Positions 39,021 to 58,102 of a stretch of 64,000 nt of DNA are shown piece after piece; the stretch's first letter is position 1, and each line of letters starts with the position of its first letter. This DNA comes from Thermomonas sp. Lineage in GTDB: Bacteria > Pseudomonadota > Gammaproteobacteria > Xanthomonadales > Xanthomonadaceae. A program made the translations under genes and the position numbers. The notes under the pieces are model-generated. The model was given only the letters and a program-made list of their open reading frames with translations. It had not been told where the DNA came from and ran no database searches. The DNA lies in contig DASWXO010000008.1 in assembly GCA_036405455.1 (NCBI GenBank), forward strand, positions 2,731 through 66,730, written 5' to 3'.

Positions 39021-42000
39021 ATGGCCACAGGGGACAGCCGCTGGCACGTCGTACATCCATCGGCCCATGCGCACGAACAGCAGGCCCTGGATCTGCTGCG
39101 CGAGCACCTGCCCGACTTCCCGCCGTTCCGCGCCTGGTCGAACTTCGAGTTCATCGCCGAAGACGGCAGCATCAATGAAGTCGACGCGCTGGTGGTGTCC
39201 AGCGACCGCATCTACCTGGTCGAGATCAAGCACTGGGCCGGCTACATCAGCGGCAACCAGAACAGCTGGCTGATCCGCTCGCCCAGCGGCCGCGAGCGTT
39301 ACGAGGAAAACCCGCTGCTGCTGGCCAACCGCAAGGCGCGCAAGCTCAAGTCGCTATTGGGTCGCCAGCAGGCCTTCCACAAGGGCCAGGTGCCGTACAT
39401 CCAGGCCGCCGTGTTCCTGTCCGAACCGCAGGTCGAACTGGCGCTGGACGAGATCGCCACCCAGCATGTTTACCTGCGCCCCGATGCCCGCCACCGCAGC
39501 GGCGCACACAGCATCATCGACGTGATCCAGGGCCGCGCCACCCAGGCCGAAGGCCGCCCCGGCATTGGCCGCGACACCGAACGCGCCCTGGCCCGCGCGA
39601 TGGACCAGCTCGGCCTGCGCAAGCGCACCCGCGCCGCCACCGTCGGCGACTACCTGCTCACCGGCCTGATCGCAGAAAACGACCGCTACCAGGACTGGCA
39701 GGCCACCCACCAGCGCGTGGCCAGCGACCACAAGCGCATCCGCATCTTCCCCCACGCCCAGCGTGCGGCCGAGGCCGAAAAGCGCGAGCGCAAGGACATC
39801 GCCACCCGCGAGTACGCGCTGCTGCGCGACATCCGCCACGACGCCATCCTCAGCCCGCGCCAGCTCACCGAGAGCGACATCGGCCCGGCCCTGGTCTACG
39901 ACTTCGATCCCGATGCGCAGCGCCTGGATCACCTGATCGATGCCGCCACCGCAGCCCCCGGCTTCGACCAGCGGCTGGAGCTGATCCGCGCCATCGCCGA
40001 AGCCCTGGCTTACGCGCACAGCCGCAATGTCTACCATCGCGCACTCAGTCCCTGGACCATCGAGCTGCACCGCGATACCCAGGGCAAGGCGCGCCCGGTG
40101 CTGCGCGACTGGCAGAGCGGCATCGCCAGCCAGGACAGCACCGCCGACACCCGCATGACCATGCACCTGGGCCAGCAGGCCGGAGTGATCGACAATCCGC
40201 GATCGGCCATCTACGCCTCGCCCGAAGTCGTGGCTGGCCACGGCTACGACCCGGTCGCGATCGACATCTTCTCGCTCGGCGCGCTCACCTACGCCCTGTT
40301 CGGCGGCCGCCATCCGGCGGCCAGCGTCGAAGAGATGCTCGACAAATGCCGCCGCGGCCCGGGCCTGATGATGTCCGAGGCGCTGGACGGCGCGCCCGAC
40401 AGCCTGCAGGTGCTGGTGCAGGCGGCCACCGATCCCAACCCCGCCGATCGCCCGTCCGATGTGCGCGAGTTTCTGCGCATGCTCGACGACGTGGAAGAAG
40501 AGCTGACCGCGCCCGAGCCCGAGCGCGGCGCGCTCCCGGCCGACGCCCGCCAGGGCGACCTGCTCACCGGTGGCTTCAAGGTCCTGCGCCGCCTGGGCGC
40601 CGGCTCCACCTGCCACGCGCTGGCGGTGGAGAACCCGGAAGGCCAGCAGGGGGTGCTCAAGGTCGCCAAGGATCCGTCTTTCAACGAGCGCCTGCGGCAG
40701 GAGTACGACACCCTGCTGGACGTGCCGCATCCGAATATCGTCAAGGCCTTCGGCGTCCACGAGATCGACGGCCTGACCGCGATCTTCATCGAGCAGGCCG
40801 GCCACCGCACCATGGGCCAGCGACTGCGCGAACAGGGACCGCTCTCGCTCGACCTGCTCGAACGCTTCGGCGATGAACTGCTCGCCGTGCTGGTGCACCT
40901 GGAGCGCGAGGGCATCAACCATCGCGACATCAAGCCCGAGAACATCGGCCTGGGCGAAACCCGCAAGCGCGCCCTGACCCTGAAGCTGTTCGACTTCTCC
41001 CTGGCGCGCGCCCCGGCCGAGAACATCCGCGCCGGCACCCCGCCGTACCTGGACCCGTTCCTCAGCCTGCGCCAGCCGCCGCGCTGGGACCTGCACGCTG
41101 AGCGCTTCGCCGCCGCCATGACCCTGCACGAAATGGCCACCGGCACCCTGCCCACTTGGGGCACGGCCGGCCAGGACCCGGCCAGCAGCGACGAAGACGC
41201 TAGCTTGGACGTGGAGAAGTTCGACGCCTCCATCCGCGACGGCCTGGCCGACTTCTTCCGCCGCGCCCTGCACCGCGACAGCAGGAAGCGCTTCGACAAC
41301 GCCGACCTGATGCACCTGGCCTGGAAGAACCTCTTCCGCCATATCGACCAGGCCACCACCACCGACGACGACCGCGACGGCAGCACCACGCTCGACTTCT
41401 CCCGCGTGGACAACCTCACCCATGCCACGCCGCTGTCCGAGCTGGGCCTGAGCGCGCGCGAGCTCAACGCCGCCGACCGCATCGGCGCCACCACGGTCGG
41501 CCAACTGCTGGCCCTGCCCGGCATCCGCTTCTACCGCAACCGCGGCATCGGCCAGCAGATCACCCGCCGCCTGCGCCAGGTGCGCGAGGCGCTGGCCGCG
41601 CACCTGGGCCAGGCGGCAGCCCCGGACCTGCCCGACGACCAGCCCGGTGCCTGGAGCATCGACCGCCTGGTCAAGGCGCTGGAGGGCACCAAGCTCGAAG
41701 CCGGCGAGGCCGAGATCATCAACCACTGGCTCGGCCTGGCCGACGCCACCCCGGCCGCCACCCTCGACCTGCCCAGCCAGCGCGAAGTGGCCGAAGCCAC
41801 CGGCAGCAGCCGTGCCCAGGTCCAGGCCGCCATCGACCGCGCCGCCGGCAAGTGGGCCAAGAACAGCTGGATGACCGCCCTGCGCGACGAAGTGGCCGCC
41901 TACCTGCAGCGCCGCGAATCCATCGCCAGCGTGGCCGAAGTCGCCAGCGGCCTGCTCATCGCCCGCGGCTCAACTGCCGGTGAAGCCGAGCGCCAGCGCC

Positions 42001-43235
42001 TGTCCGCCGCGGTGCTCCAGGCCGCGCTGGAAGTCGAAGCCACCCGCGAATCCGCCCGCTACGTGCTCTACCGCGGCCACGCCGTGCCGCTGCTGGTGAG
42101 CACCGAAGGGCAGGGCGGCGAACCGCATGCCTCCACCGCCGAGCGCACCGGTTTTGCCGAAGCACTGGCCGAAGAAGCCACCAGGCTGGCCGCCGAAGAC
42201 CCCTTGCCCAGCCCGCGCCGCGCCGAGCAGGCGCTGATGGCCGTCCCCGCACCGGCCGGCGACCCGCCCATGACCCCCGAACGCCGCCTGCGCCTGGCCC
42301 AGGCCGTCGCCCCCGGCGTGGCCCTGTCCAGCCGGCAGGAGCTGTATCCGGTGGGCCTGTCCGCCGAGCGCGCCCTGCGCCTGGGCGCCAACACCCTGCT
42401 CGGCGCGCGCCGCTTGAGCGTGGAGCAGCTGCACGCCCGCATCCACAGCCGCTTCGCCATGGCCGAGCGCCTGCCCGGCCGCCCAGCGCTGGACCGCCTG
42501 CTGCAGCAGATCGACTTCCCCCTGCAGTGGTACGAGGCCGGCGACGGCTTGCCCGCCGGCTACGCCATGCCGCAGCAGGCCAGCGGCGCCACCCGCCACA
42601 CCAGCACCCTGCGGCGCATGACCACCGCCGTGCACGGTGATGCCGACTCCCCGGACGCGCAGCAGGCGCGCGCCTTCGACGCCACCGTGCGCCGCGCGCT
42701 GCATGCCGGACGTGTGCTGCTGGTCAGCGCCGACCTGAAATGGGTGGAAGCCGCCGCCCCCGAGCTGTGCCAGCAGTACGCCCTCACCGCGCTCAGCCTC
42801 GACCAACTGCTGATCGACGCGCTCAAGGCCCAGGCCGGCCGGATCGGTGCCGACTGGCGCGTAGTGCGCCAGGCCGACGCCGCCGTGCAGGCCAGCGCCG
42901 ACTGGCGCCGCCTGACCGCCCTGGTCGAGCGCGCCATCCCGGCCGTGGTCGAACAGCTCCGCGACGACCCGCGCCCACTGCTGCTCCAGCATCCGGGCCT
43001 GCTGGTCCGCTACGGCCAGGTCGATCTGATCCAGCGCCTGCGCGACGCCGCCAGCGCCGGCCAACGCCCCGCGCGCCTGCTGCTGCTGCCCGGCGACAGC
43101 CACCAGCCGCCGATGCTCGACGGCGTGGTGTTGCCCGTCATCACCCCCGCCGACTGGACCCACCTGCCCCGGTCCTGGCTGGAAAACCGCCACCGCGCGG
43201 CCCCGGCCGCCACCATTTCCGGAACCACCGCGTGA
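39021..43235 (+). CDS. pglW: BREX type 2 serine/threonine kinase PglW (NERD + two kinase domains + alpha-CTD-like HhH)
   Basis: NERD EVDALVV...VEIKHW; kinase 1 HRALSP; kinase 2 HRDIKPEN...DFSLA; LSELGLSARELNA. Confidence 0.93.
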   Translation: MATGDSRWHVVHPSAHAHEQQALDLLREHLPDFPPFRAWSNFEFIAEDGSINEVDALVVSSDRIYLVEIKHWAGYISGNQNSWLIRSPSGRERYEENPLLLANRKARKLKSLLGRQQAFHKGQVPYIQAAVFLSEPQVELALDEIATQHVYLRPDARHRSGAHSIIDVIQGRATQAEGRPGIGRDTERALARAMDQLGLRKRTRAATVGDYLLTGLIAENDRYQDWQATHQRVASDHKRIRIFPHAQRAAEAEKRERKDIATREYALLRDIRHDAILSPRQLTESDIGPALVYDFDPDAQRLDHLIDAATAAPGFDQRLELIRAIAEALAYAHSRNVYHRALSPWTIELHRDTQGKARPVLRDWQSGIASQDSTADTRMTMHLGQQAGVIDNPRSAIYASPEVVAGHGYDPVAIDIFSLGALTYALFGGRHPAASVEEMLDKCRRGPGLMMSEALDGAPDSLQVLVQAATDPNPADRPSDVREFLRMLDDVEEELTAPEPERGALPADARQGDLLTGGFKVLRRLGAGSTCHALAVENPEGQQGVLKVAKDPSFNERLRQEYDTLLDVPHPNIVKAFGVHEIDGLTAIFIEQAGHRTMGQRLREQGPLSLDLLERFGDELLAVLVHLEREGINHRDIKPENIGLGETRKRALTLKLFDFSLARAPAENIRAGTPPYLDPFLSLRQPPRWDLHAERFAAAMTLHEMATGTLPTWGTAGQDPASSDEDASLDVEKFDASIRDGLADFFRRALHRDSRKRFDNADLMHLAWKNLFRHIDQATTTDDDRDGSTTLDFSRVDNLTHATPLSELGLSARELNAADRIGATTVGQLLALPGIRFYRNRGIGQQITRRLRQVREALAAHLGQAAAPDLPDDQPGAWSIDRLVKALEGTKLEAGEAEIINHWLGLADATPAATLDLPSQREVAEATGSSRAQVQAAIDRAAGKWAKNSWMTALRDEVAAYLQRRESIASVAEVASGLLIARGSTAGEAERQRLSAAVLQAALEVEATRESARYVLYRGHAVPLLVSTEGQGGEPHASTAERTGFAEALAEEATRLAAEDPLPSPRRAEQALMAVPAPAGDPPMTPERRLRLAQAVAPGVALSSRQELYPVGLSAERALRLGANTLLGARRLSVEQLHARIHSRFAMAERLPGRPALDRLLQQIDFPLQWYEAGDGLPAGYAMPQQASGATRHTSTLRRMTTAVHGDADSPDAQQARAFDATVRRALHAGRVLLVSADLKWVEAAAPELCQQYALTALSLDQLLIDALKAQAGRIGADWRVVRQADAAVQASADWRRLTALVERAIPAVVEQLRDDPRPLLLQHPGLLVRYGQVDLIQRLRDAASAGQRPARLLLLPGDSHQPPMLDGVVLPVITPADWTHLPRSWLENRHRAAPAATISGTTA

Positions 43236-46200
43236 TCAATGCAAGACAGCTGCTGACCGATCTGCAGGCCCAGCAGAAGAAACTCGAAAACGACCTGCGC
43301 CAGCAGGCCGAGGCCCTGCCCGAACTCAAGGCGCGGCTTGAAGCCGAGTACAAAGCCGCCCGCGACGCCGGCCGCACCGCCGACACCTTCAACATCTGGC
43401 GCGAGCACCAGGTCACCCAGTCCGCCGTGGCGTGGGTGCTGGCCTGCACCTTCGTGCGCTTTGCCGAAGACACCGGCCTGCTGCCCACCCCGCGCCTGTC
43501 CGGCCCCGGCGACGCCCTGCGCCGCGCTCGCGACGCCTTCGGCGAGTTCGTGCGCCAGCGCCCCACCGATCACGAGCGTCACTACCTGGAATCCGTGTTC
43601 GACGGCCTGGCCGAGTTCCCCGCGCTCACCGGCCTGTTCGGCCGCGCCCACAATCCGCTGTTCGCCATCCCGCCAACGTATGAGGCCGCGCGCGACCTGC
43701 TCGCCTTCTGGCAGCAGACGGATCCGGATACGGGCGCCCTGCGCCACGACTTCAGCGATCCGGTTCTGGACACCCGCTTCCTCGGCGACCTCTACCAGGA
43801 CCTGTCCGAAGCCGCGCGCAAGCGCTACGCCCTGCTGCAGACGCCGGAGTTCGTGGAAGAATTCATCCTCGACCGCACCCTGGAGCCGGCCATCAAGACC
43901 TTCGGGCTGGACGGCATCCGCCTGATCGATCCCACCTGCGGCTCGGGCCACTTCCTGCTCGGCGCCTTCCAGCGCCTGCTGGACCACTGGCAGCGCAGCG
44001 CGCCGGGGCTGGACGCGCGCGAGCGCGTGATCAAGGCGCTCGCCGGCGTCTACGGCGTGGACCTCAACCCCTTTGCGGTGGCCATTGCCCGCTTCCGCCT
44101 GCTGGTGGCCGCGCTCCGGGCCAGCGGCATCCGCACCCTGCGCGAAGCGCCGGGCTGGACGTTCAATGTCACCACCGGTGACTCACTGCTGCATGGCCGC
44201 CGCTTCGACCTGCTAGGTGCGGACGATCTTTCGCAGCGGTATCCGCACGCCTACGCCGCCGAGGACATCGACGCCGTCAACCGCATCCTCGGCCAGCGCT
44301 ACCACGCCGTGGTCGGCAACCCGCCATACATCACCGCCAGCGACAGCGCGCTTAATGCGCTTTATCGCAAGCGCTATTCCGACAGCTGTCACCGTCAGTT
44401 TTCGCTCGGTGTGCCCTTTACCGAGCGCTTCTTCCAGCTGGGCGAACCCCAGGGCGACGCGCCGGCTGGCTATGTCGGCCTGATCACCGCCGACAGCTTC
44501 ATGAAGCGCGAGTTCGGCAAGAAGCTGATCGAGGACTGGTTCCCGCGCCAGGACCTGACCCACCTCATCCACACCTCTGGCGCTTATATCCCCGGCCATG
44601 GCACGCCCACGGTGATCCTGTTCGGCCGCAACCGCGCTCCAGTAGCCAGTACGGTGCGCACTGTGCTCGGCATTCGCGGCGAGCCGTCTCCGCCGGAAGA
44701 TCCGGCGCGGGGATTGGTCTGGCGATCCATCGTGCAACTGACGGACCAGCCCGGTGCGAGAAACGAGTACATCAGCGTGGCCGACATGGAGCGCGAGCGC
44801 TTGGGCAAGCATCCTTGGAGCTTGCAGGGTGGTGATGCCCCATCGGTGCTCGGACAGATCGATGCGGCAGCTTCAGCGCTTTTGGAAAGCGAAGTTGAGA
44901 CTCCGATTGGCCGAGCTGTTCGAATAGCGGAAGAGGATGCGTTTATCTATTCGTCTTCGCGCAAAAAGAATTCATCAATCTCGCAATCAGCGTTTCGGGA
45001 CTACTTGGTGGGGGATGCCGTCCGGGACTGGCACGTTGGCGCTCTGGAAAGTGTTTGGTATCCCTACCACCGTGCTGATGCGGATGAGGTGGCTCTCAAG
45101 GAGCTATGGCCGTGGCGCACTAGATTGGCACGGAGAAAGACATTCCAAGGTGAGATGGAAGATGCGGGACTGTCGTGGTTTGATTACATGCAGCACACGG
45201 CTTCTGCATATCGAACCGAGAAGTCAATCGCTTTTGCTGAGGTCGCCACCCACAACCATTTCGTGCTCGATCGCGGTGGAAAGGTGTTCAAGCAAACGGC
45301 GCCGGTCATCAAGCTTCCGGCCGAAGCCAGCGAGGCCGATCATCTGGGCCTGCTCGGGCTGTTGAACAGCTCGACCGCGTGCTTCTGGCTGCGTCAGAAC
45401 TGCTTTGGAAAGGGTGGCGATCACGTCGGCACGGATGGTGCGCGGGTCGTTAAGACTGCATGGGAGGAACGTTTCGCTTTTAACGCTACGCGCATCGAAG
45501 AATTTCCGCTTATTAGGCAGCGCCCGCTGGAACTCACCCGTCAGCTCGACATGCTGGCCCGCGAACGCGGATCCCATCTCCCTGCGTCGCTCGCCGCCCG
45601 GCTACCGCTCTCGCGCGCGGAATTGGATGCGCACCGTGCCCAGGCCGACGCGCTGTTCGCGCGCATGGTCGCCCTGCAGGACGAGCTGGACTGGTGGAGC
45701 TACCGCCCCTACGGCCTGCTCGGCGACGACCTGACCTTTGCCAGCGAGCCGCCCGGCATCGCCCTGGGCGAGCGCGCCTTCGAGATCGTACTGGCGCGGC
45801 GCATCGCAGCGGGTGAAGTCGAAACCAAATGGTTCGAGCGCCACGGTTCCATCCCGGTCACCGAAGTGCCCGCGCACTGGCCGGCCGACTACCGCGCCCT
45901 GGTCGAGCGCCGCATCGCCCTGATCGAATCCCACCCGTGGATCGGCCTGCTGGAGCGCCCCGAATACAAGCGCCGCTGGAATCAGCCCGGCTGGCACGAA
46001 CTGGAGCAGGCCGCCCTGCGCGGCTGGCTGCTGGACCGCCTGGAAACCCCACGCTACTGGCCCGAGCCGGCCCTGCAGCGCATCGGCGACTTGGCCGCCC
46101 GCGCCGAGCGCGACGCCGACTTCATGGCCGTGGCTGCGCTCTACACCGGCCAGCCCGCCTTCGACCTCGCCGCCCTGCTGCGCGACCTGCTGGACGGCGA

Positions 46201-46858
46201 ATCCGTGCCCGCGCTCAAGGCGCTGCGCTACAAGCCCGCCGGCCTGCGCAAGCGCGCCGACTGGGAGCACACCTGGGCCCAGCAGCGCCGCGAGGACGCC
46301 ATCGACGCCGCCGTGGCCGCCGAGCACCCGCGCCTCGACGGCGAGGACGAGGCCCAGTGGCAGGCCCGGATCAAGCCCGAGCAGGACCAGCGCAGGCTGG
46401 CCGAAGTCGGTCGCCTGCCGGCCCCGCCCAAATACACCAGCGCCGACTTCCTGAAGCCCGTCTACTGGCGCCTGCGCGGCGGCCTGGACGTACCCAAGGA
46501 GCGCTGCTTCACCGTCCCCGACCCGCAGGCCCCCGGCGACTGGCTCTACGGCTGGGCCGGCTGGAACCCCGCCCAGCGCGTCCGCGCCCTGGCCGGCGCC
46601 TTCATCGACGGCATCGAGCGCAGCGGCGCCGCCCCCGCCCAGCTCCTGCCCCTGCTCATCGCCTTGGACGAGGCGCTGCCCTGGGTCCTGCAGTGGCACA
46701 ACGCCATCGACCCCGACACCGACGTCCGCCCCGGCGACTACTTCCGGCAATGGCTCCACGAACAGCTCAACCGCCACCACTGGACCCGCCAGACCCTGGC
46801 CGAGTGGCAGCCCCCGGCCACCGCCCGTCGGGGAAGGCGACCACGGGCCGCCTCCTGA
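43232..46858 (+). CDS. pglX: BREX-2 N6-adenine DNA methyltransferase PglX
   Basis: GTG start overlaps the pglW stop; [10 protein letters not shown] motif I, VVGNPPY motif [27 protein letters not shown]. Confidence 0.94.
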
Positions 46859-46879
46859 GCCGGGATTCAGGCATGATAT

Positions 46880-46894
46880 TTATCACGGTGATAA
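46880..46894. promoter_or_regulatory. Perfect 7-bp inverted repeat, candidate MqsA operator
   Basis: TTATCAC-G-GTGATAA immediately upstream of the toxin ATG (46900). Confidence 0.55.
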
Positions 46895-46899
46895 GATAG

Positions 46900-47328
46900 A
46901 TGACCAGCCTGTGGCTGATCGACCCGACGCAACTGGTGCCCCCTTCAGGGACCGGAAGCCGGCGTCTCCGCAAGCGTGGAGACCCGCTGATTGATCTGGT
47001 CGCACTGAAGCAAGCAATTTCTGATGGTGCTCTGGAGCGTGAAGATGTCTGGCTGGCGACAGACGACTGCGAGAAGAATGTTCAGGATCTCACCTGGACC
47101 ATCGACGATATCCTCGACTGCCTTGTATGCCTTCGCCCTGAGGACCACAAGAATTCAGAGTGGTGCAAAGACAGGCATGGCAACTGGCATGCCTGCGACG
47201 CTTATGCCATCCGTTATGACGACGCTGCCAAGCGCAGAGTACGCTACAGCGACATCAACTATTACCTGAAGTTTTCATTGGATGAGGACGGCGCTTTGAC
47301 GCTTGTCCTGATCAGTTGCCACGTCTGA
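46900..47328 (+). CDS. mqsR: MqsR-like (RelE-fold) type II toxin
   Basis: W...DAYAI...YYLKF...LISCH pattern; upstream of a Zn-finger HTH antitoxin. Confidence 0.72.
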   Translation: MTSLWLIDPTQLVPPSGTGSRRLRKRGDPLIDLVALKQAISDGALEREDVWLATDDCEKNVQDLTWTIDDILDCLVCLRPEDHKNSEWCKDRHGNWHACDAYAIRYDDAAKRRVRYSDINYYLKFSLDEDGALTLVLISCHV

Positions 47329-47359
47329 CGTTGGACGTGACAGAGAGCCGGAGTAAGTA

Positions 47360-48031
47360 ATGAACCAAGCCAAGACGCGACGCTGCCCTGCCTGCCGACA
47401 GGCAGAACTGCAACCAGCGACCCGTGTCCGCGAGTTCCATCCGCGCGGACGGGCAGCCCCGGTTCGCGTTGAACTGCTGACGTCTGTTTGCCCGTCCTGT
47501 GGCGCCGAAGCTACCTCCGCCGCGCAGCATTCGGAGAACCTGAAGCGGCTCAAGGCGCGCAAGGCGCAGTACGGCGGCGTGTTGCTGGGCGAGGAGATCT
47601 TCTCCCTGCGCCGCCGCTACGGCATCACCCAGCAGGCGGCAGCGAAGATTTTCGGCAAGGGCAAGATCGCGTTTTCGCGCTACGAGAATGAGACATCGTA
47701 CCCGGACGACTCCGCGACGCTGTTGCTCACCCTGGCCATCGAGAAGCCGGAGGTCATCCGCTCGCTGGCAGACAAGGCCGGCGTTGAACTGCCGCTGTGG
47801 GAGGCGCGTTGCGAAGACGAGCGCCGCGCCAAGCTGCACGTCATGAGTGATGTCCTCAAAGTGGATACCGAGAGCAGTCGCGCTCCGGGAGTTGGCGAAA
47901 AACGAGTCGCTTGGTTCCACGTTTTCGGCGGTGGTTTACACCGTGAGGCCAGCTATACATTCGATCATTCAAAACCGGTCGTGAGCGCCAATGACGACCA
48001 CTACGCCATGAAGTCGGCAGGGTTCGCATGA
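47360..48031 (+). CDS. mqsA: MqsA-family antitoxin (Zn finger + HTH) with C-terminal extension
   Basis: CPAC...CPSC; LRRRYGITQQAAAKIFGKGKIAFSRYE; ~70-aa tail. Confidence 0.88.
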   Translation: MNQAKTRRCPACRQAELQPATRVREFHPRGRAAPVRVELLTSVCPSCGAEATSAAQHSENLKRLKARKAQYGGVLLGEEIFSLRRRYGITQQAAAKIFGKGKIAFSRYENETSYPDDSATLLLTLAIEKPEVIRSLADKAGVELPLWEARCEDERRAKLHVMSDVLKVDTESSRAPGVGEKRVAWFHVFGGGLHREASYTFDHSKPVVSANDDHYAMKSAGFA

Positions 48032-48573
48032 AAACTGCGCCAATCCAGTTGAGTCTGCTTTCCTTCCGGCGCATCAGTGTGGAAATCGATGCTGGCCGGA
48101 TTCCAGAGGATGGATCAACGCCGGAGGACGTGGCGTTCGACTTCGACGGCGTCAACATTGCGACCCATGTCAGCTTCTCGCCGGAGGATGAATCCATTCC
48201 GGCCGGAACGGCATTCTTCCTTGCGCTGCGCGTGGTGATCGACAATCAGTCGTCAGACGAAACAGACCTGCGGTTCTCCCCGTACCTGATTGATATCGAG
48301 GCAGGCGCCGTGGTGCGCGCGTTGCCCGGCGCGGAAGTGCTTGGTGATATCCAGGACCTCATTGTCGTTAATGGAACATCGCTGCTCTGGTCGGCGATCC
48401 GGGAGCAGGTCTGCAACCTCACCGCGAGGATGCCGGCAGGCCAGGTGATGCTGCCGACGGTGAATTTCCACGACCTCAAGCGTCAGAACCGCGAGCAGGA
48501 GGCAGACGAGACGTCTGCGGCCAAGCCGAAGGCGAGGCCGGGACGGAAGGCGGCGAAGACTTCCGGCAAATGA
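48028..48573 (+). CDS. SecB-like chaperone of a toxin-antitoxin-chaperone (TAC) module
   Basis: NGTSLLWSAIREQVCNLTARMPAGQVMLPTVNF is a SecB-like C-terminal signature; ATGA overlap with mqsA. Confidence 0.85.
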   Translation: MKTAPIQLSLLSFRRISVEIDAGRIPEDGSTPEDVAFDFDGVNIATHVSFSPEDESIPAGTAFFLALRVVIDNQSSDETDLRFSPYLIDIEAGAVVRALPGAEVLGDIQDLIVVNGTSLLWSAIREQVCNLTARMPAGQVMLPTVNFHDLKRQNREQEADETSAAKPKARPGRKAAKTSGK

Positions 48574-48588
48574 GTTTGCGGAGGTGAC

Positions 48589-48631
48589 TTGCGTCTAACA
48601 TGGCCATGTTATATAACGCGGCCATGTTAGA
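48589..48631 (+). promoter_or_regulatory. Sigma70-like promoter overlaid by palindromic operators
   Basis: TTGCGT (48589-94), 17 bp, TATAAC (48612-17). 16-bp palindrome TAACATGGCCATGTTA (48596-48611). 12-bp IR TCTAACATGGCC/GGCCATGTTAGA (48594-605, 48620-631). Confidence 0.75.
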
Positions 48632-49772
48632 TTCCGATCCAAGGCGGGCTGATCCGGAACGAGCGCACGCAAAGGCGCTGGCGGGCGTGTTTGCCGATCA
48701 AGGCTGGTCGGTGGCTCTTGCGCCGGAGGTGCCAGGCCCTGACCTGCTGGTGTCCAAAGGCCGCCAGCGCTATGCGGTCGAGCTGAAATCCTCCTCGGAA
48801 GGGCGAGCCGACCGGGTCATCCCGCTGCTGTCGCAGGCCATCCTGCAGGCGATGCACCATGCCGCCCGGTCTTCCGGCGCGCGGCCGCTGGCCGTGGTGC
48901 GGGTCGGGCGCCTGACGAAGACCCTGCGCGAACGCGCCAGCCGCTTCCATGCCGAGTATGCTCCGCAGGCGGCCATCGGCCTGATAGACGACGATGGCGG
49001 CCGCTGGTTCGAGGGTGCCGGCCTGGAGGGCCTGAACGCGGAGCCAAAGTCGCACGCGGCGCGGCGCAAGGGTGCGCTGCCCAAGCGCGGCCACGATCTG
49101 TTCTCAGATCTGAACCAGTGGCTGCTCAAGGTGCTGCTGGCGCCGGAGTTGCCCGAGCACCTGTTGGGCGCGCCGCGCCGAGACTATCGGACGGCCGCCG
49201 AGCTGGCCGAGGCCGCGCAGGTGTCGGCGATGAGCGTGTCGCGCTTCATCAAGCGCCTGCGTGAGGAAGGCTTTGTCGACGAGAGCGGTGCCACGCTGCG
49301 CCTGGTGCGGCGCGCGGAGCTGTTTCGGCGCTGGCAGGCGGCCGCCTCGCGCGCCACGCCGGAGTTGCCGATGCGCTTCCTGATGCCGGGGGCGCCACGC
49401 GAGCAACTCGGAAAGGTGGTGGCGCGTCATCCAGAAGCCTGCGTCGGCTTGTTTGCTGCAGCCAGTCTGCTCGATTCGGGGCACGTGGCTGACGGTCTGC
49501 CCTGGGTCTATGTGCGCAAGCTGCCGGAGTTTCCGGATCAGGCGTGGCCGGAGCTGGTCGAGGTCTCGCCCGGCCAGCCGCTGCAGCTCATCCTCAAGCA
49601 AGCGGCCACGCCCGAGTCGGTCTTTCGCGGCGCGGTGCAGGTGCGGGGGGCCTGGGTGTCGGACATCCTGCAGATCTGGCTGGATGTGTCCTCGCATCCG
49701 TCCCGGGGTAGCGAGCAAGCCGACCACTTGGCGCGGACGGTGCTGGCACCCGTGATGGGGCGCGGGGCATGA
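48624..49772 (+). CDS. AbiEi-like type IV antitoxin/regulator (PD-(D/E)xK-like N-terminus, central HTH, AbiEi-type C-terminus)
   Basis: PDLLV...YAVELK; TAAELAEAAQVSAMSVSRFIKRL; SDILQIWLDVSSHPSRGSEQADHL; start 48624 preferred over 48600 because of promoter position. Confidence 0.7.
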   Translation: MLDSDPRRADPERAHAKALAGVFADQGWSVALAPEVPGPDLLVSKGRQRYAVELKSSSEGRADRVIPLLSQAILQAMHHAARSSGARPLAVVRVGRLTKTLRERASRFHAEYAPQAAIGLIDDDGGRWFEGAGLEGLNAEPKSHAARRKGALPKRGHDLFSDLNQWLLKVLLAPELPEHLLGAPRRDYRTAAELAEAAQVSAMSVSRFIKRLREEGFVDESGATLRLVRRAELFRRWQAAASRATPELPMRFLMPGAPREQLGKVVARHPEACVGLFAAASLLDSGHVADGLPWVYVRKLPEFPDQAWPELVEVSPGQPLQLILKQAATPESVFRGAVQVRGAWVSDILQIWLDVSSHPSRGSEQADHLARTVLAPVMGRGA

Positions 49773-50575
49773 GCGAGCAGCTTGCCTTCGGACGCCTGGT
49801 CACCGGCCTGTCGCCGTGGCTGGGGCAACTGGTGTTCGTGGGCGGGTGGGCGTTCCGCCTGTACCGCCTGCATCCGGGCGCGGAGGTGCCGGCGTATCGA
49901 CCGGTAGTGACCCTGGACGCGGATGTCGCCTTCGCCGAGGGCGAGCGCCTGGAGGGCAATATCCGTGCGCGCCTGCTGGACACCGGTTTCGTGGAAAACC
50001 TGATGGGCAACCACCGGCCGCCGGTCTCGCAGTACACGCTGGGCGATGATGTCTCGGGCTTCTATGCGGAATTCCTCACGCCGCTGAGCGGCAGCGGTCG
50101 GCGGCGCGATGGCGAACCGATGGCGACCGTCGCCAGGGCGGGCGTGACCGCCCAGCGCCTGCGCCATCTTGACCTGCTGCTTGAAGTGCCGTGGCAGGTC
50201 AGCCTGGGCGCGGGCTGGGGCGTGGGCCCGGATACGTCGGTTCGGGTTCCCAATCCTGCGAGCTTCATCGCCCAGCGATTGTTGATCCACGACCAGCGGC
50301 TGCCAGGCAAGAAGGCGCAGGACATCCTGTACATCCACGACACGCTGGAGCTGTTCGGCGGACAGCTCGATGTTCTGGGCCAGCTGTGGCGCGACGCGCT
50401 TGCACCTACACTTCACGCACGGCAACGGCGCGAGCTGTTGCAGGCGATTGACACCATTTTCGGCCGCCTGGATGACCGGATCCGCGATGCGGCGGCGATT
50501 CCCGCCGACCGCGAACTGGATCCGGAGCGGATGCGGCAGATGTGCCGGATGGCACTGGGGGACATGCTGGAATGA
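49769..50575 (+). CDS. Nucleotidyltransferase-fold protein (GSU2403/AbiEii-like type IV toxin)
   Basis: VFVGGWA...TLDADVA Pol-beta motif; KKAQDILY; ATGA overlaps on both sides. Confidence 0.78.
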   Translation: MSEQLAFGRLVTGLSPWLGQLVFVGGWAFRLYRLHPGAEVPAYRPVVTLDADVAFAEGERLEGNIRARLLDTGFVENLMGNHRPPVSQYTLGDDVSGFYAEFLTPLSGSGRRRDGEPMATVARAGVTAQRLRHLDLLLEVPWQVSLGAGWGVGPDTSVRVPNPASFIAQRLLIHDQRLPGKKAQDILYIHDTLELFGGQLDVLGQLWRDALAPTLHARQRRELLQAIDTIFGRLDDRIRDAAAIPADRELDPERMRQMCRMALGDMLE

Positions 50576-53500
50576 CCACGATCGGCGACATCTTCACCAT
50601 TCCGGACGCCGTCCACCAGGGCGACTTCGTCCTGCGCCTGACCGAAGGCCTGCAAGCCGACAAGCGCAGGCAGACGATGCAGCAGTACGTGGTCACGCCG
50701 CAGCTGGTGCAGTCCTTCAAGCAGGCGCTGTCGCTGATCGGCAGCGCGGTCACCAGCAACTCGTCCAAGGGCGCCTACCTGCATGGCAGCTTCGGCAGCG
50801 GCAAGAGCCACTTCATGGCGGTGCTGGACATGATCCTGGAAGGCGACGCCGATGCGCGCGCCATTCCCGAGCTGGCCGGCGTGGTACGCGAGGCCAATGC
50901 CTGGTGGGAGGGCGGCCGCTATCTTGTGGTGCCGTTCCACATGATCGGTGCGCGCAGCATGGAGTCGGCGATCTTGGGCGGTTATGCGGCACATGTGCGC
51001 GAGAAGCACCCCGATGCGCCCACGCCCGGCTTCTACCGCAGCGCCGAGCTGATCGAGAACGCGCATCGCCTGCGCGGGCAGATGGGCGACGAGAGTTTCT
51101 TCAAGGCGCTGGGCGGCAGCGGCGGTGGTGATGTTGGCTGGGGCAGCCTGGGAGATGGCTGGGATGCGGCCGCCTATGACGCCGCGGCCGCTGCCGATCC
51201 GGACGATGCCGAGCATCGGCGCCTGGTCGGCGATCTGGTGGATGCCTTCTTCCGCCACCTGCACGCCAACGCCGACACCGACAACTACGTGAGTCTGGAC
51301 CGCGGCCTGGCGGTGATGTCGCAGCACGCGCGCGACCTGGGCTACCGGGCCGTAGTGCTGTTCCTGGACGAGCTGATCCTGTGGCTGGCCAGCCACTCGC
51401 AGGACAGCGCATTCCTCAATCGCGAAGGTCAGAAGGTGGCCAAGCTGGTGGAGGCCGAGGCGGCGGGCCGGCCGATCCCGATCGTGAGCTTCATCGCCCG
51501 CCAGCGCGACCTGCGCGAGCTGGTGGGGGCCTCGGTGCCCGGCGCGCAGCAACTGGCCTTCGCCGATGTGCTGCAGTGGTGGGAGGCGCGCTTCGACAAG
51601 ATCGTGCTGGAGGACCGCAACCTGCCGGCGATCATCGAGCGGCGCCTGCTGCAGCCGCGAGGCGAAGCCGAGAAGCAGCAGGTGCACGATGCCTTTGAAA
51701 AGACCGCGCGCGTGCGCCAGGAGGTTCTGGACATCCTGCTGACCAACGAAGGCGACCGGCGGATGTTCGAGCAGGTCTATCCCTTCAGCCCGGCGCTGGT
51801 GCAGGTGCTGGTGGCGCTGTCGGGGCTGCTGCAGCGCGAGCGCACCGCGCTCAAGCTGATGCTGCAGTTGCTGGTGCAGAGCAAGGACCGCCTGCAGCTT
51901 GGCGACGTGATTCCGGTGGGTGATCTGTTCGACGTCATCATCGATGGCGACGAGCCGTTCACGCCAGTGATCAAGAACCTGTTCGACCGTGCGCGCGGAG
52001 TGTGGAACCGCAAGCTGGTGCCGCTGCTGGAGGCCGACCACGGCGTGTCCAACCAGGACATCCTTGACGGCAACGCCGATCCCCAGGTGGTCCGGCGCTA
52101 CCGCGCCGACGCCGGCATCCTCAAGACCCTGCTGCTGTCCACGCTGGCGCCGGAGGTGGAGGCGCTGCGCAACCTGACCCCGATCCGCTTGGCGGCGCTC
52201 AACCACGGCACCATCCGCTCGCCCCTGCCCAATGGCGAAGCCAGCACGGTGCTGGCCAAGGTCCGCGGCTGGGCCAGCCATGCCGGCGAGATCCAGCTGA
52301 GCCCGGATGCGGCCCAACCGGTCATCACCATGCAGCTCAGCGGGGTGGACGTGGAGGGCGTGCTGGAAAACGCACGCGCCATGGACAACTTCGGCAATCG
52401 CGTGCGGATGGTGAAAGACCTGCTGTTCGGCGAGATCGGCATCGATGCGGCCACCGCACTGCTGGCACCGGAGTACGCTTGGCTGTGGCGTGGTACGCCG
52501 CGGCGTACGGAAGTGCTGCTGCAGAACGTGCGCGAGCTGACCGACGAGAGCATGCGCCCCGGCGACGGCGTGTGGCGATTGCTGGTGGATTACCCGTTCG
52601 ACGAGGATCCGGCGCGCACGCCGGCCGACGACCGGGCGCGGCTGCAGACCTTCCGCGAGCGCGCCGAATCGGTGCGCACCATCGCGTGGATTCCGTCCTT
52701 TCTCAATGATCGTGCCCTCGACGACCTGGGGCGCCTGGTGATCCTCAACCATGTGCTGTCCGGGCCACGTCTGGACGAGTACGGCGCGCACCTGCAGCCG
52801 ATCGAGCGCAGTGAGGCCCGGGCCACGCTCAAGAGCCAGCGCGACCAGTTGGAGCTGCGTGTGCGCGCTGCGCTCAAGCAGGCCTACGGCATTGCCCAGG
52901 GCACCGGTACCGATGTGCACACCAGCCATACGCTGGACGAGCATTTCCAGTCGCTGGCCAACGGCCTGCGGCTGCAGCCTCCGCCGGGCGGCGGCTTCAA
53001 AGAAAGCGTGGAGCACCTGCTGGACCAGGCGCTGGCGCACCAGTACCCGGCGCATCCGAAGTTCGAGGGCGAGGTGCGTCGCTCCGGTCTGAAGCGGTCG
53101 TTGGATGCGTTGCGCGAGGCGGTGGAGTCGGCCGATGGGCGTGCGGGGCTGGGTAGCCAACGCGATGAGATCCGCCGCATTGTCCAGCCGTTGAGGCTGG
53201 CGACGTGTGGCGAAGCCCATCTGTCGCTGGAGGAACACTGGCGCACCCACTTCACCCGCAAGATGGCCGCCGAGCGCGTGGACAACCCCACCGTCCGCCA
53301 GCTCCGGCAGTGGATGGATGAGCCGCACGCCATGGGGCTGCAGGACGACGCCTCGGACCTGGTGATCCTGGCCTGGGCGGCACAGGCGGGTCGCACGCCC
53401 TACCTGCACGGTGCGCCGGTGCAGGCGGAGATCGGCAGCCTGAACCGGGAGTGCGAACTGCGTGAGCAGGCGCTTCCGGACGAAGCGCTGTGGAAGGAAG

Positions 53501-54213
53501 CGGTCCGCCGTGCCTCCGATATTTTCGGCGAAGCAGGCACCGGCGCCGGCCGCAATCCGGGCAACGTGGCGAGCATGGTGCAGACACTGCGCCGACATGC
53601 CAGCGACAAAATGGGGGCCGTGCGCGACTACAGCGCCGCGCTGGAAAGCCGACTCAAGGACTGGAGCGTGGCCGACGACTGCGCGCGCATGCGGACCGCG
53701 CAGGCATCACTGGATCTGCTGATCGCGCTGGCCGATGCTGGCGCGGATCCGGTGGCGGTGCTGGCGCAGGCGCGGGTGGACACCTCCAGCGCGGCTATGG
53801 GCGCAGTAATGGCATCCGCGCCTGCCCTGACGACAACGCTGCGTTCATCGCAGTGGCAGGTGTTGGAGTCCTTCCGCAGCCTGGGCCGCAGCGACACACC
53901 TGCGGTGGCGGTCCTGGATGCGGTGGTCGCGGCACTGGCGGCCGACGAGCACGTCACCAGGCTGGATGCGGAGCTGTCCCGCCAGCATGGGGCCGCGCTG
54001 AAGCTGATGGTCGTGGCACCTCCGCCTGCTCCGCCGCCGCCCGCGCCGGTGCCACCGTCGCTGCCTGCCGTGCGCAGCATCGAGCGGCGTTCGGCGGATG
54101 CCGCCGCGGTGACCGAGGTGATGCGGGAGCTGCAGCAGACGTTGGATGAAGATCCTTCGCTGCGCGTGGACATCGAATGCCGCGTGTATCGCGATGGCGG
54201 TGGTGGGGCGTGA
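50572..54213 (+). CDS. pglY: BREX-2 ATPase PglY
   Basis: MTTIGDIFTIP..VHQGDFVLRL; GSFGSGKSHF Walker A; LFLDELILWLA; YPFSPALV. Confidence 0.93.
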   Translation: MTTIGDIFTIPDAVHQGDFVLRLTEGLQADKRRQTMQQYVVTPQLVQSFKQALSLIGSAVTSNSSKGAYLHGSFGSGKSHFMAVLDMILEGDADARAIPELAGVVREANAWWEGGRYLVVPFHMIGARSMESAILGGYAAHVREKHPDAPTPGFYRSAELIENAHRLRGQMGDESFFKALGGSGGGDVGWGSLGDGWDAAAYDAAAAADPDDAEHRRLVGDLVDAFFRHLHANADTDNYVSLDRGLAVMSQHARDLGYRAVVLFLDELILWLASHSQDSAFLNREGQKVAKLVEAEAAGRPIPIVSFIARQRDLRELVGASVPGAQQLAFADVLQWWEARFDKIVLEDRNLPAIIERRLLQPRGEAEKQQVHDAFEKTARVRQEVLDILLTNEGDRRMFEQVYPFSPALVQVLVALSGLLQRERTALKLMLQLLVQSKDRLQLGDVIPVGDLFDVIIDGDEPFTPVIKNLFDRARGVWNRKLVPLLEADHGVSNQDILDGNADPQVVRRYRADAGILKTLLLSTLAPEVEALRNLTPIRLAALNHGTIRSPLPNGEASTVLAKVRGWASHAGEIQLSPDAAQPVITMQLSGVDVEGVLENARAMDNFGNRVRMVKDLLFGEIGIDAATALLAPEYAWLWRGTPRRTEVLLQNVRELTDESMRPGDGVWRLLVDYPFDEDPARTPADDRARLQTFRERAESVRTIAWIPSFLNDRALDDLGRLVILNHVLSGPRLDEYGAHLQPIERSEARATLKSQRDQLELRVRAALKQAYGIAQGTGTDVHTSHTLDEHFQSLANGLRLQPPPGGGFKESVEHLLDQALAHQYPAHPKFEGEVRRSGLKRSLDALREAVESADGRAGLGSQRDEIRRIVQPLRLATCGEAHLSLEEHWRTHFTRKMAAERVDNPTVRQLRQWMDEPHAMGLQDDASDLVILAWAAQAGRTPYLHGAPVQAEIGSLNRECELREQALPDEALWKEAVRRASDIFGEAGTGAGRNPGNVASMVQTLRRHASDKMGAVRDYSAALESRLKDWSVADDCARMRTAQASLDLLIALADAGADPVAVLAQARVDTSSAAMGAVMASAPALTTTLRSSQWQVLESFRSLGRSDTPAVAVLDAVVAALAADEHVTRLDAELSRQHGAALKLMVVAPPPAPPPPAPVPPSLPAVRSIERRSADAAAVTEVMRELQQTLDEDPSLRVDIECRVYRDGGGGA

Positions 54214-56798: not shown

Positions 56799-58102
56799 CG
56801 ACGATCTCACCCGCCCGTGCCGATGAAATCCTGGATGCGCTGCGACGCGGCACCGTGCCCGAGTCCGCGCTGGACGCGTTTGCGGTCGGGCTGGACCCCT
56901 ACCGCGACACCCTGCTGGCGGAGCTGAGCCAGGCTTCGACAGGCCGAGGCCGGTTCAAGGCCGTGCGCGGCGACTACGGAACGGGCAAGACCTTTTTTGC
57001 CCGCTGGTTCCAGGGGCTGGCGCGTGCGGAAGGGTTCGCCAGCTCGGAAGTGCAGATCTCCGAAGCGGAAACGCCGCTGCATCGCCTGGAAACGGTGTAC
57101 AGGCGGCTGATCGAGCACCTGATGATCGAAGGTGGGGAGCGCGGTGCCATGCGCGCGATCATCGACGGCTGGTTCTATGCGCTGGAAGAGGAAGTGCTTG
57201 CGCGGGAAGGTGATTGCGCCGAGGACAGGCTGCTCCAGGCGAGCGAGGCGCTGATGACTGAGCGCCTGCGCCCGATCGAGCGGCAGGCGCCGGCATTTGG
57301 TGCCTGCCTGCGGACCTATCGCCGTGCGATGGCGGCCGGCGACGAGGCTCTGGCCAGTGGTCTGATTGCCTGGATGTCGGGGCAGCCGAACGTGGCCGCT
57401 GCGGTCAAACGCGCGGCCGGGATCAAGGGCGACATCGATCACTTCGGGGCGCTGGGCTTCCTGCAGGGCCTGCTGCTGATCCTGCGCGACAGTGGATTTT
57501 CCGGCCTGGTGCTGGTGCTGGACGAGGTGGAAACCCTCCAGCGCGTGCGCGGCGATGTCCGGGAAAAGAGCTTGAACGCGCTGCGCCAGCTCATGGACGA
57601 GATCGATGCCGGCCGCTTTCCAGGCCTGTACCTGATGATTACCGGCACGCCGGCGTTCTTCGATGGCCCGCAGGGTGTGCAGCGACTGCCGCCCTTGGCG
57701 CAGCGGCTGCACGTGGACTTCGGTGCCGATGGACGGTTCGACAATCCGCGTGCGGTCCAGATCCGCCTGCGTGCCTTCGACATGGAGCGCCTGGTCGAAG
57801 TCGGGCGCAACGTAAGGGCTGTGTTCGTCCAGCGCAGCGCCGCCGCAGATCGCGTGCTCGCGCATGTCGACGATGCCTTGATCACGGACCTGGCAACCGC
57901 CGTGACCGGCAGGCTGGGCGGGAAGGTTGGCGTTGCGCCACGGATCTTCCTGAAGAAGCTGGTGTCCGAGGTGCTGGATCGGGTCGATCAGTTTCCCGAC
58001 TTCGACCCCCGCAAGGATTATCAGCTCGTGGTGCAGCTTGCGGAGCTGAGCCAGGACGAGCGGCGCGTGCTGTCGCCAGACGATATCCAGCTCGATCTGT
58101 GA
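56795..58102 (+). CDS. brxD: BREX system ATP-binding protein BrxD
   Basis: ALRRGTVP; GDYGTGKT Walker A; LVLDEVE; RFDNPRAVQIRL. Confidence 0.92.
   Translation: MTTISPARADEILDALRRGTVPESALDAFAVGLDPYRDTLLAELSQASTGRGRFKAVRGDYGTGKTFFARWFQGLARAEGFASSEVQISEAETPLHRLETVYRRLIEHLMIEGGERGAMRAIIDGWFYALEEEVLAREGDCAEDRLLQASEALMTERLRPIERQAPAFGACLRTYRRAMAAGDEALASGLIAWMSGQPNVAAAVKRAAGIKGDIDHFGALGFLQGLLLILRDSGFSGLVLVLDEVETLQRVRGDVREKSLNALRQLMDEIDAGRFPGLYLMITGTPAFFDGPQGVQRLPPLAQRLHVDFGADGRFDNPRAVQIRLRAFDMERLVEVGRNVRAVFVQRSAAADRVLAHVDDALITDLATAVTGRLGGKVGVAPRIFLKKLVSEVLDRVDQFPDFDPRKDYQLVVQLAELSQDERRVLSPDDIQLDL

Follow-up and report, generated by a model that had tools for sequence, protein, structure and literature searches.

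A predicted MqsRAC-type toxin-antitoxin-chaperone module in the pglX-pglY interval of a type 2 BREX locus from Thermomonas sp.

The window analyzed here, a 64,000-nt stretch of a Thermomonas sp. metagenome-assembled genome (MAG; assembly GCA_036405455.1, contig DASWXO010000008.1, positions 2,731 to 66,730), contains three co-oriented open reading frames (ORFs) on the + strand at positions 46900-48573, in the order toxin, antitoxin, chaperone. The first, designated T (46900-47328, +), encodes a 142-aa putative mRNA endoribonuclease that is, by profile-profile comparison, MqsR-like and divergent. The second, A (47360-48031, +), encodes a 223-aa antitoxin in which an MqsA-type zinc ribbon and helix-turn-helix (HTH; residues 1-135) are followed by an 88-residue tail, and the third, C (48028-48573, +), encodes a 181-aa chaperone with a SecB fold, as identified by Foldseek of its AlphaFold2 (AF2) model. 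A and C are translationally coupled by an ATGA overlap between the start codon of C (ATG, 48028-48030) and the stop codon of A (TGA, 48029-48031), an arrangement that is almost universal across the loci of the family, and a GGAG motif lies 6 nt 5' of the antitoxin start. The G+C content of the triad stretch is 57-62%, lower than the roughly 70% of its neighbouring genes. More than 60 independent contigs carry the same triad, which is therefore not a chance arrangement. A complete type 2 bacteriophage exclusion (BREX; Pgl) locus surrounds it, with all six core genes recognized by PADLOC (E 0 to 1e-194). An earlier reading of the sequence, made from the letters alone (the sequence-only reading), had proposed an MqsR-MqsA-SecB toxin-antitoxin-chaperone (TAC) system inside BREX, and both the identity of the triad and its setting were borne out, the former by models for MqsA, by the SecB fold and by hhalign to MqsR.

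The antitoxin exceeded the cut-offs of two MqsA models, PF15731 (1.8e-17, 64.1 bits, cut-off 30) and TIGR03830 (2e-25, 89 bits, cut-off 61.8), and its residues 8-135 aligned with the whole of E. coli MqsA (PDB 3gn5, E 1.8e-10). The cysteines of the zinc-ribbon CxxC..CxxC pattern, C9, C12, C44 and C47, are invariant in its relatives, and the HTH segment GITQQ..AAKIFGKGKIAFSRYENE is invariant or nearly so, in agreement with the zinc-finger and HTH antitoxin that had been proposed. An alignment of 10 antitoxins with E. coli MqsA placed the tail at residues 136-223 (47765-48028, +), which makes it longer than the roughly 70 aa given previously. E. coli MqsA ends where the tail begins (aligned at about residue 137) and thus is without it. 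The tail contains the conserved segment LADKAGVELPLW(147)-x-ARCEDER, with W147 lying within VELPLW, and its aromatic anchors are W147, W185/F186/F189, Y199/F201, Y215 and F222; aromatic residues near positions 175-189 and 196-201 are conserved across the ten relatives. An aromatic patch, VAWFHVF, had been singled out by the sequence-only reading. The patch is present (residues 183-189, nt 47906-47926) but is common only to the closest relative, L002, and it was rejected as the key element because the family alignment does not conserve it; W147 in VELPLW and the C-terminal end are conserved instead. We presume that the tail is a chaperone-addiction (ChAD) region.

The last 14 residues of the antitoxin, ANDDHYAMKSAGFA (47987-48028, +), are a look-alike of the ssrA tag. 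Within the antitoxin end, SANDDHYAMKSAGFA, the string ANDDHYAM..FA resembles the tag ANDDNYALAA, and the conserved tail end among relatives reads ANDDHY/F..AAFA. In eight relatives belonging to the same genus or order, the tag specified by the tmRNA gene is ANDDNYALAA, ANDDVYALAA or ANDENYALAA; these relatives supplied the tag sequence because the tmRNA of the source MAG itself was not found by ARAGORN, and was found weakly by Rfam. When the pattern AND[DE]x[YF] was sought in the last 20 residues of 7562 genome ORFs (six-frame, at least 80 aa), it occurred in one, the antitoxin. SspB is encoded in the genome (135 bits). Most other antitoxins of the family end in ..EAA, ..LAA, ..MAA or ..VAS. 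Within the ChAD of M. tuberculosis HigA1, the site bound by the chaperone is accompanied by a ClpX degron at the C-terminus (PMC8165232, citing Texier 2021). Since the HigA1 ChAD combines these two elements, we infer that the chaperone may likewise hide a degron here, and the antitoxin end is presumed to be an SspB/ClpX degron.

Direct comparison of the chaperone with Pfam SecB (PF02556) gave an E value of 0.031 (14.6 bits, under the cut-off of 26), and comparison with the PADLOC model PD-T4-9_C (CmdC) gave 2.8e-4. A profile of 39 chaperone homologues searched against PDB reached no SecB by sequence. The predicted structure (AF2, predicted local distance difference test score (pLDDT) 81.7) settled the fold of C as that of SecB, a four-stranded sheet with a long helix. 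Its top 13 Foldseek matches in PDB, among them 1fx3, 1ozb, 5mtw and 5jtl, had E values of 8e-6 to 1.5e-4, a probability of 1.0 and template-modelling (TM, target) scores of 0.49-0.69, and corresponded to the SecB proteins of H. influenzae and E. coli and to the M. tuberculosis TAC chaperone Rv1957. The third gene thus proved to be SecB-like and to overlap the antitoxin gene, as first described. A canonical SecB is encoded on another contig of the genome (169 bits versus 14.8 bits for C), which indicated that C is an extra, specialised SecB paralogue. Residues 158-181 of the chaperone (..AAKPKARPGRKAAKTSGK; nt 48499-48570) are disordered and rich in Lys and Arg. The tail of the export SecB is acidic and binds SecA, and this difference suggests that C does not engage SecA.

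The close family of the toxin is small, comprising 23 clusters that are 43-94% identical and conserved over their full length. Across the 23 members 28 columns are invariant, including Y122 and K124, and the C-terminal half is conserved. The toxin begins with an N-terminal extension of about 25 residues, as had been noticed from the sequence, and M1 and W5 within it are invariant in the family. Because conservation runs from M1 and W5 to the C-terminal H141, the extension is real. Compared with L002, T is the fastest-diverging gene of the locus at 64% identity (PglW 91, PglX 82, A 85, C 85, PglY 90 and BrxD 98%); between these two toxins the last 50 residues are almost unchanged and the first 90 are variable. 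A broad toxin profile searched against 1.8 billion representatives returned 348 clusters, and 35 of 76 sampled members of this superfamily matched Pfam MqsR_toxin, the best at 1.7e-8. One relative at the level of about 30% identity (P0179) reached 25.7 bits against PF15723, for which the cut-off is 26.2, with residues 27-82 corresponding to profile positions 2-56. The sole PDB match of the broad profile was MqsR 3hi2_B, and it was weak (E 0.07). The broad profile was then compared by hhalign with an independent alignment of 28 canonical MqsR proteins, which gave a probability of 94.3% (E 1e-7, columns 29-137 versus 5-95); the narrow toxin profile gave 90.6% (E 1.3e-6). Both alignments cover nearly the whole of MqsR. 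In the AF2 model of the toxin (pLDDT 83.8), a beta-alpha-beta-alpha succession precedes four strands, which we take to be the order of MqsR. We conclude from the profile comparisons that T encodes a predicted, divergent homologue of MqsR, lengthened at its N-terminus by about 25 residues.

The catalytic residues of MqsR are reportedly K56, Q68, Y81 and K96 (E. coli numbering). In the profile alignment, Y81 corresponds to Y122 of the toxin, which is conserved, and K96 to H141, a near-invariant His. K56 aligns with N85, beside K84, and Q68 aligns with H98 or C99. The further equivalences in the same alignment are S57 with S86, D69 with D100, Y71 with Y102, K83 with K124, and S94 with S139.

Immediately upstream of T lies a perfect 7+1+7 palindrome, TTATCACGGTGATAA (46880-46894, no strand), that ends 5 nt 5' of the toxin ATG and overlaps a Shine-Dalgarno-like GGTGAT. 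It is the single such site in the window, compared to a chance expectation of 0.01. Each of 61 fetched loci contains a single copy of the 15-nt pattern TTATCAYGGTGATAA. Of the 64 TAC loci in which the contig includes the 5' region of the toxin gene, 61 have the pattern where the toxin begins; the three loci that lack it are the most distant, with chaperone identities of 37% or less. Across nine aligned loci the palindrome is invariant, and the DNA that flanks it is unalignable between distant loci. From the first base of the palindrome to the inferred toxin start the distance is 20 nt in 19 loci, as in the window, and 8 nt in 31 loci; the shorter distance places a GTG or ATG start within the palindrome itself. 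E. coli mqsRA carries the palindrome ACCT-N-AGGT. In the MqsA-DNA structure, N97 of E. coli MqsA contacts bases; the aligned residue here is Ile and R101 is kept, which fits an operator sequence other than that of E. coli. As judged from its position and conservation, the palindrome is likely the operator of the dimeric MqsA-type HTH antitoxin. The start region also shows a stop-then-start arrangement. At 46888-46902 of the window (GTG ATA AGA TAG ATG), a three-codon frame runs out of the palindrome and its TAG abuts the toxin ATG; the same arrangement is found in L002, L014 and L088, and in L012 as an overlapping TGATG. In 31 more distant loci that frame is open, and the toxin seems to begin at the GTG or ATG of the palindrome. 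This arrangement may reflect leaderless or coupled initiation.

The triad lies in the slot bordered upstream by pglX (43232-46858, +; BREX methyltransferase, PADLOC PglX 1582 bits) and downstream by pglY/brxC (50572-54213, +; PADLOC BrxC-PglY 1424 bits). Every toxin homologue that was looked up (L002-L013) sits in a type 2 BREX locus with pglX on one side and pglY on the other. Of the three chaperone homologues at about 52% identity, two (L014/15 and L017) do so as well. A metagenome scan with the chaperone profile yielded 68 loci in 47 clusters, and PglX and/or PglY adjoined the chaperone in 29 of the 34 informative clusters (85%). Across 41 loci, the identities of the chaperone are correlated with those of PglY (Spearman 0.69, Mantel p 0.001). 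Some pairs of loci have PglY proteins that are 76% identical and chaperones that are 32% identical, which points to swaps of chaperone type between related BREX loci. A reverse test, started from PglY in species-representative genomes, found the TAC in two proteobacterial loci (L019, a Burkholderiales MAG, and L021, a Rhodanobacteraceae MAG), with nine proteobacterial loci (L020, L022, L024 of Nitrococcus mobilis, L025, L026, L028, L029, L031 and L048) and all actinobacterial Pgl loci lacking it. Its absence from L020, L022, L024-L031 and all actinobacterial loci indicated that the TAC is not a defining component of BREX.

The insert between pglX and pglY comprises five genes, as T, A and C are followed by a second cargo of a winged-HTH (wHTH) protein (48600-49772, +; Pfam) and an overlapping NTP_transf_8 nucleotidyltransferase (NTase; 49769-50575, +; Pfam), a pair that is joined to pglY by overlapping codons. 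Many loci have this pair behind the TAC, but it is missing from L012, L017 and numerous metagenomic loci, so that it was regarded as separate cargo outside the TAC. The remaining BREX genes recognized by PADLOC are pglW (39021-43235), pglZ (54177-56798), brxD (56795-58102) and brxHI (58099-60177). In L020 (6448-7987), whose PglY is 89% identical, the wHTH-NTase pair is present and the TAC is replaced by genes of 255 aa, 117 aa and 138 aa (PIN-like), which indicates that the slot exchanges cargo resembling toxin-antitoxin (TA) systems. The slot of L014 contains Bro-N and RES-Xre cargo.

Several individual loci differ from this arrangement. The metagenomic loci L103 (5836-7428) and L104 have the TAC, together with its palindrome, in the pglW-pglX interval instead. 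The third chaperone homologue at about 52% identity, L016 (8654-10738, in a 3.3-Mb genome), is the sole TAC outside BREX among the homologue loci looked up, and it resembles a relic: a 44-aa C-terminal fragment of PglX, a truncated toxin and an antitoxin with a frameshifted tail are present, the chaperone is called at 245 aa, and the palindrome is still there. In L006 (7976-9855), an AAA_21/AAA_15 ATPase (431 aa) and a 195-aa gene of no family, which we liken to a PARIS- or Gabija-type add-on, stand between pglX and the TAC. About 20 nt directly 5' of the L006 palindrome resemble the 3' end of the pglX of the window; a duplicated pglX 3' end was considered and rejected, as a repeat search found none. 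The Thiodictyon plasmid pTs485 (L129; NZ_CP020372.1, 458330-470758) carries a TAC with a chaperone that is 37% identical, annotated as MqsA and SecB, between a large DNA methyltransferase and the DISARM genes drmA/DUF1998. An ISAs1 transposase interrupts the MqsR-like toxin of this TAC, which has no palindrome. Four Burkholderia phages, among them vB_PR2a (L130; PQ789823.1, 31673-33260), carry a gene that is 27% identical to the chaperone, located after two small unannotated genes and adjoining the C2 repressor region; this is possibly a phage-borne TAC of another family.

Taken together, these results favor, with a probability of roughly 0.65, a reading in which the triad is an MqsRAC-type TAC carried in the BREX-2 slot, where it would act as an independent second layer of defence that senses phage by chaperone titration and releases an RNase. 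At rest, the MqsA-like antitoxin would bind and neutralise the MqsR-like RNase, and an antitoxin dimer would repress the module at the palindrome over the toxin start. The 88-residue tail would make the antitoxin unstable by way of its aromatic anchors and its C-terminal ssrA-like ClpX/SspB degron, and the dedicated SecB-fold chaperone would bind this tail, keep the antitoxin soluble and hide the degron. During infection, an abundant, newly made phage protein would compete for the chaperone, as is extrapolated from HigBAC, CmdTAC and the E. coli MqsRAC; the antitoxin would then be degraded, the toxin would cleave mRNA, and the infection would be aborted. The module would most likely serve as an independent second layer behind BREX, travelling and diverging with the BREX locus.

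Several results weigh against this reading. The toxin had no match in Pfam, NCBIfam or PADLOC (for Pfam MqsR_toxin PF15723, none at E <= 0.1), and a six-frame search of the genome with PF15723 returned nothing. In PDB sequence searches, neither the toxin sequence by itself nor its narrow profile rose above noise (tropomyosin and MCM10). When the toxin model was compared with PDB by Foldseek, no entry matched significantly, and there was no match to MqsR or RelE (best E 0.36); HigB2 5jaa_D ranked 22nd with a probability of 0.16. Without a significant structural match, the assignment to MqsR rests on sequence profiles and not on structure. The MqsR label of the sequence-only reading therefore stood in the profile-profile comparisons but failed in Pfam, NCBIfam, PADLOC, the PDB sequence search and Foldseek. 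Two of the proposed catalytic residues, K56 and Q68, are not conserved one-for-one in the toxin. The full ssrA-like motif is restricted to the clade of the window (11 of 54 distinct family tails). A consensus scan of 46500-50700 identified no sigma-70-like promoter, and no terminator-like site was found 3' of C; with no terminator between C and the downstream genes, the triad is not clearly an autonomous transcription unit. Finally, the chaperone profile found no relative among IMG/VR viral contigs, unlike the prophage-borne TACs of E. coli.

The TAC is very closely and durably linked to BREX-2 (29 of 34 clusters; co-divergence r = 0.69), as would also be expected if it mainly served addiction, using post-segregational killing to keep a costly BREX locus or island from being lost, and did not sense phage at all. 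Other cargo of the TA type also occupies the slot (PIN in L020, RES-Xre in L014, wHTH-NTase in the window), in keeping with such a role. A plain two-gene TA would suffice for stabilization, however, and the extra chaperone, the tail and the swaps of chaperone type between BREX loci that are closely related look like diversification of a sensor; moreover, published TACs function in defence (PMC9519451). We consider addiction unlikely.

Two further possibilities connect the triad to expression of the BREX genes themselves. In one, the TAC would be an integrated second tier of BREX-2, in which a fast-swapping chaperone senses a late phage protein or an anti-BREX factor after BREX has failed, and loss of the antitoxin both releases the RNase and derepresses pglY-pglZ-brxD-brxHI. 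This model is speculative and is given a low likelihood; if it is true, one ssrA-tagged repressor would couple abortive infection with BREX expression. In the other, the antitoxin would act as an integrated regulator that controls, via the operator, transcription into pglY-pglZ-brxD-brxHI, such that its loss frees the RNase and alters or raises BREX expression. The operator does lie between pglX and everything downstream, C is followed by no terminator, and in many loci (L072, L084 and L087) C is 16-25 bp from pglY, which leaves no room for one. E. coli MqsA, in addition, regulates genes beyond its own operon. Regulation of this kind is nevertheless rather improbable, as the position of the TAC varies (between pglW and pglX in L103/L104), 1-4 kb of other cargo separate C from pglY in L014, L082-86 and L091, the wHTH-NTase cassette intervenes in the window, and an active RNase would cut BREX mRNAs too.

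A general stress TAC, in which unfolded or aggregated proteins of the host titrate the chaperone and cause growth arrest unrelated to phage, was the original model for M. tuberculosis HigBA1-SecB (PMC3581621, PMC8165232), yet the near-exclusive residence of the present family in anti-phage systems (BREX-2, and DISARM for the distant pTs485 relative) makes this quite doubtful here. It is very improbable that the module is a decayed, inert remnant with an inactive toxin: no gene of the locus has diverged more than T (64% to L002, compared to 81-98% for its neighbours) and broken copies exist elsewhere (the truncated T and frameshifted tail of L016; the T of pTs485 split by ISAs1), but in the window all three frames, the operator and the ATGA coupling are intact, and the 28 invariant columns in 23 family members include the MqsR-equivalent Y122 and K124 and accompany a conserved C-terminal half.

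If the triad is indeed a second layer that senses phage through its chaperone, it would join one of the few groups of defence systems with a known sensing principle, in that phage structural proteins titrate the chaperones of TACs. To our knowledge, the TACs studied so far are a handful, all from E. coli prophages or M. tuberculosis. The toxin subfamily is missed by the Pfam, NCBIfam and PADLOC models, the candidate operator is clear and testable, and the series of chaperone and tail variants in one fixed slot suits the mapping of trigger specificity. An antitoxin end that copies the ssrA tag of the host points to SspB/ClpXP as the executioner. The near-exclusive residence in type 2 BREX would add a predicted chaperone-gated RNase to the catalogue of BREX 'backup' effectors, and offers a tractable case for asking whether embedded modules merely co-travel with BREX or cooperate with it.

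The triad is an MqsRAC-type TAC; such systems have already been described, and one is proven anti-phage, so that the triad as such is not new. In V. cholerae RC385, MqsRA-SecB is a chaperone-addicted module whose ChAD starts at residue 136 (Bordes et al. 2016, PMC5105189), and the MqsRAC of E. coli C496_10 protects against phage T2, a protection that is abolished when more of the chaperone is supplied (Vassallo et al. 2022, PMC9519451). The triad shares with these modules the order T-A-C, an MqsR-type toxin, a dedicated SecB-like chaperone and an MqsA-type zinc-ribbon/HTH antitoxin with an extra tail from about residue 136; the logic is presumed to be the same, with a chaperone-addicted antitoxin and a defence that is lost with excess chaperone. 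Compared with their published descriptions, it differs in a toxin that lies beyond Pfam MqsR_toxin and has an N-terminal extension of about 25 residues, a chaperone under the Pfam SecB cut-off, a longer tail of 88 aa with an end like the ssrA tag, the operator TTATCAYGGTGATAA, and a lineage inside type 2 BREX and not on prophages.

In the published systems the chaperone senses phage capsid or tail proteins, lambda gpV in the case of HigC and the T4 capsid protein in that of CmdC (bioRxiv 10.1101/2024.02.24.581848; PMC11618068). HigBAC (E. coli NT1F31) and CmdTAC/PD-T4-9 (E. coli ECOR22) resemble the triad in having a SecB-fold chaperone, which is the sensor in those systems, and a long ChAD with spaced aromatic anchors: W128, F158, F188 and Y214 in HigA (ChAD of about 97 aa), and W147, about 175-189, about 196-201 and 215 here. 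Antitoxin turnover in both systems is ClpXP-dependent, as is proposed for A. Their toxins, in contrast, are the HigB RNase and the mRNA ADP-ribosyltransferase CmdT, their antitoxins differ as well, and their triggers (lambda gpV and the T4 capsid) have been identified. For M. tuberculosis HigB1-HigA1-SecB(TA) (Rv1955-1957), the likeness lies in the chaperone, whose model matches the chains of 5MTW with a probability of 1.0, and in a ChAD that combines a chaperone site around an aromatic residue with a hydrophobic ClpX degron at the C-terminus. The HigA1 chaperone site is EVPTWHRL..Y114 and its degron is Val-Ala; the corresponding elements here are VELPLW and Phe-Ala. That system differs in being HigBA and not MqsRA, and it is described as stress-responsive and lies outside any defence system.

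BREX loci are also described as embedding backup effectors, including HNH, HKD, PD-(D/E)XK, OLD/TOPRIM, HEPN, PIN and Schlafen nucleases, and the main text of that survey names no SecB, MqsA or MqsR (NAR 2026, PMC12839542). Discussion of SecB-type chaperones or TAC modules inside BREX loci was likewise not found in those portions of the literature that were searched. Similar to embedded effectors such as BrxU and PARIS-type inserts, the triad is a module of the suicidal type that stands between core genes in the same orientation, in a slot that takes other cargo. What is new relative to the literature searched is the near-exclusive and co-diverging residence of the module in the pglX-pglY slot of proteobacterial type 2 BREX, together with its invariant predicted operator, an antitoxin end that mimics the ssrA tag, and a toxin subfamily that is invisible to current models.

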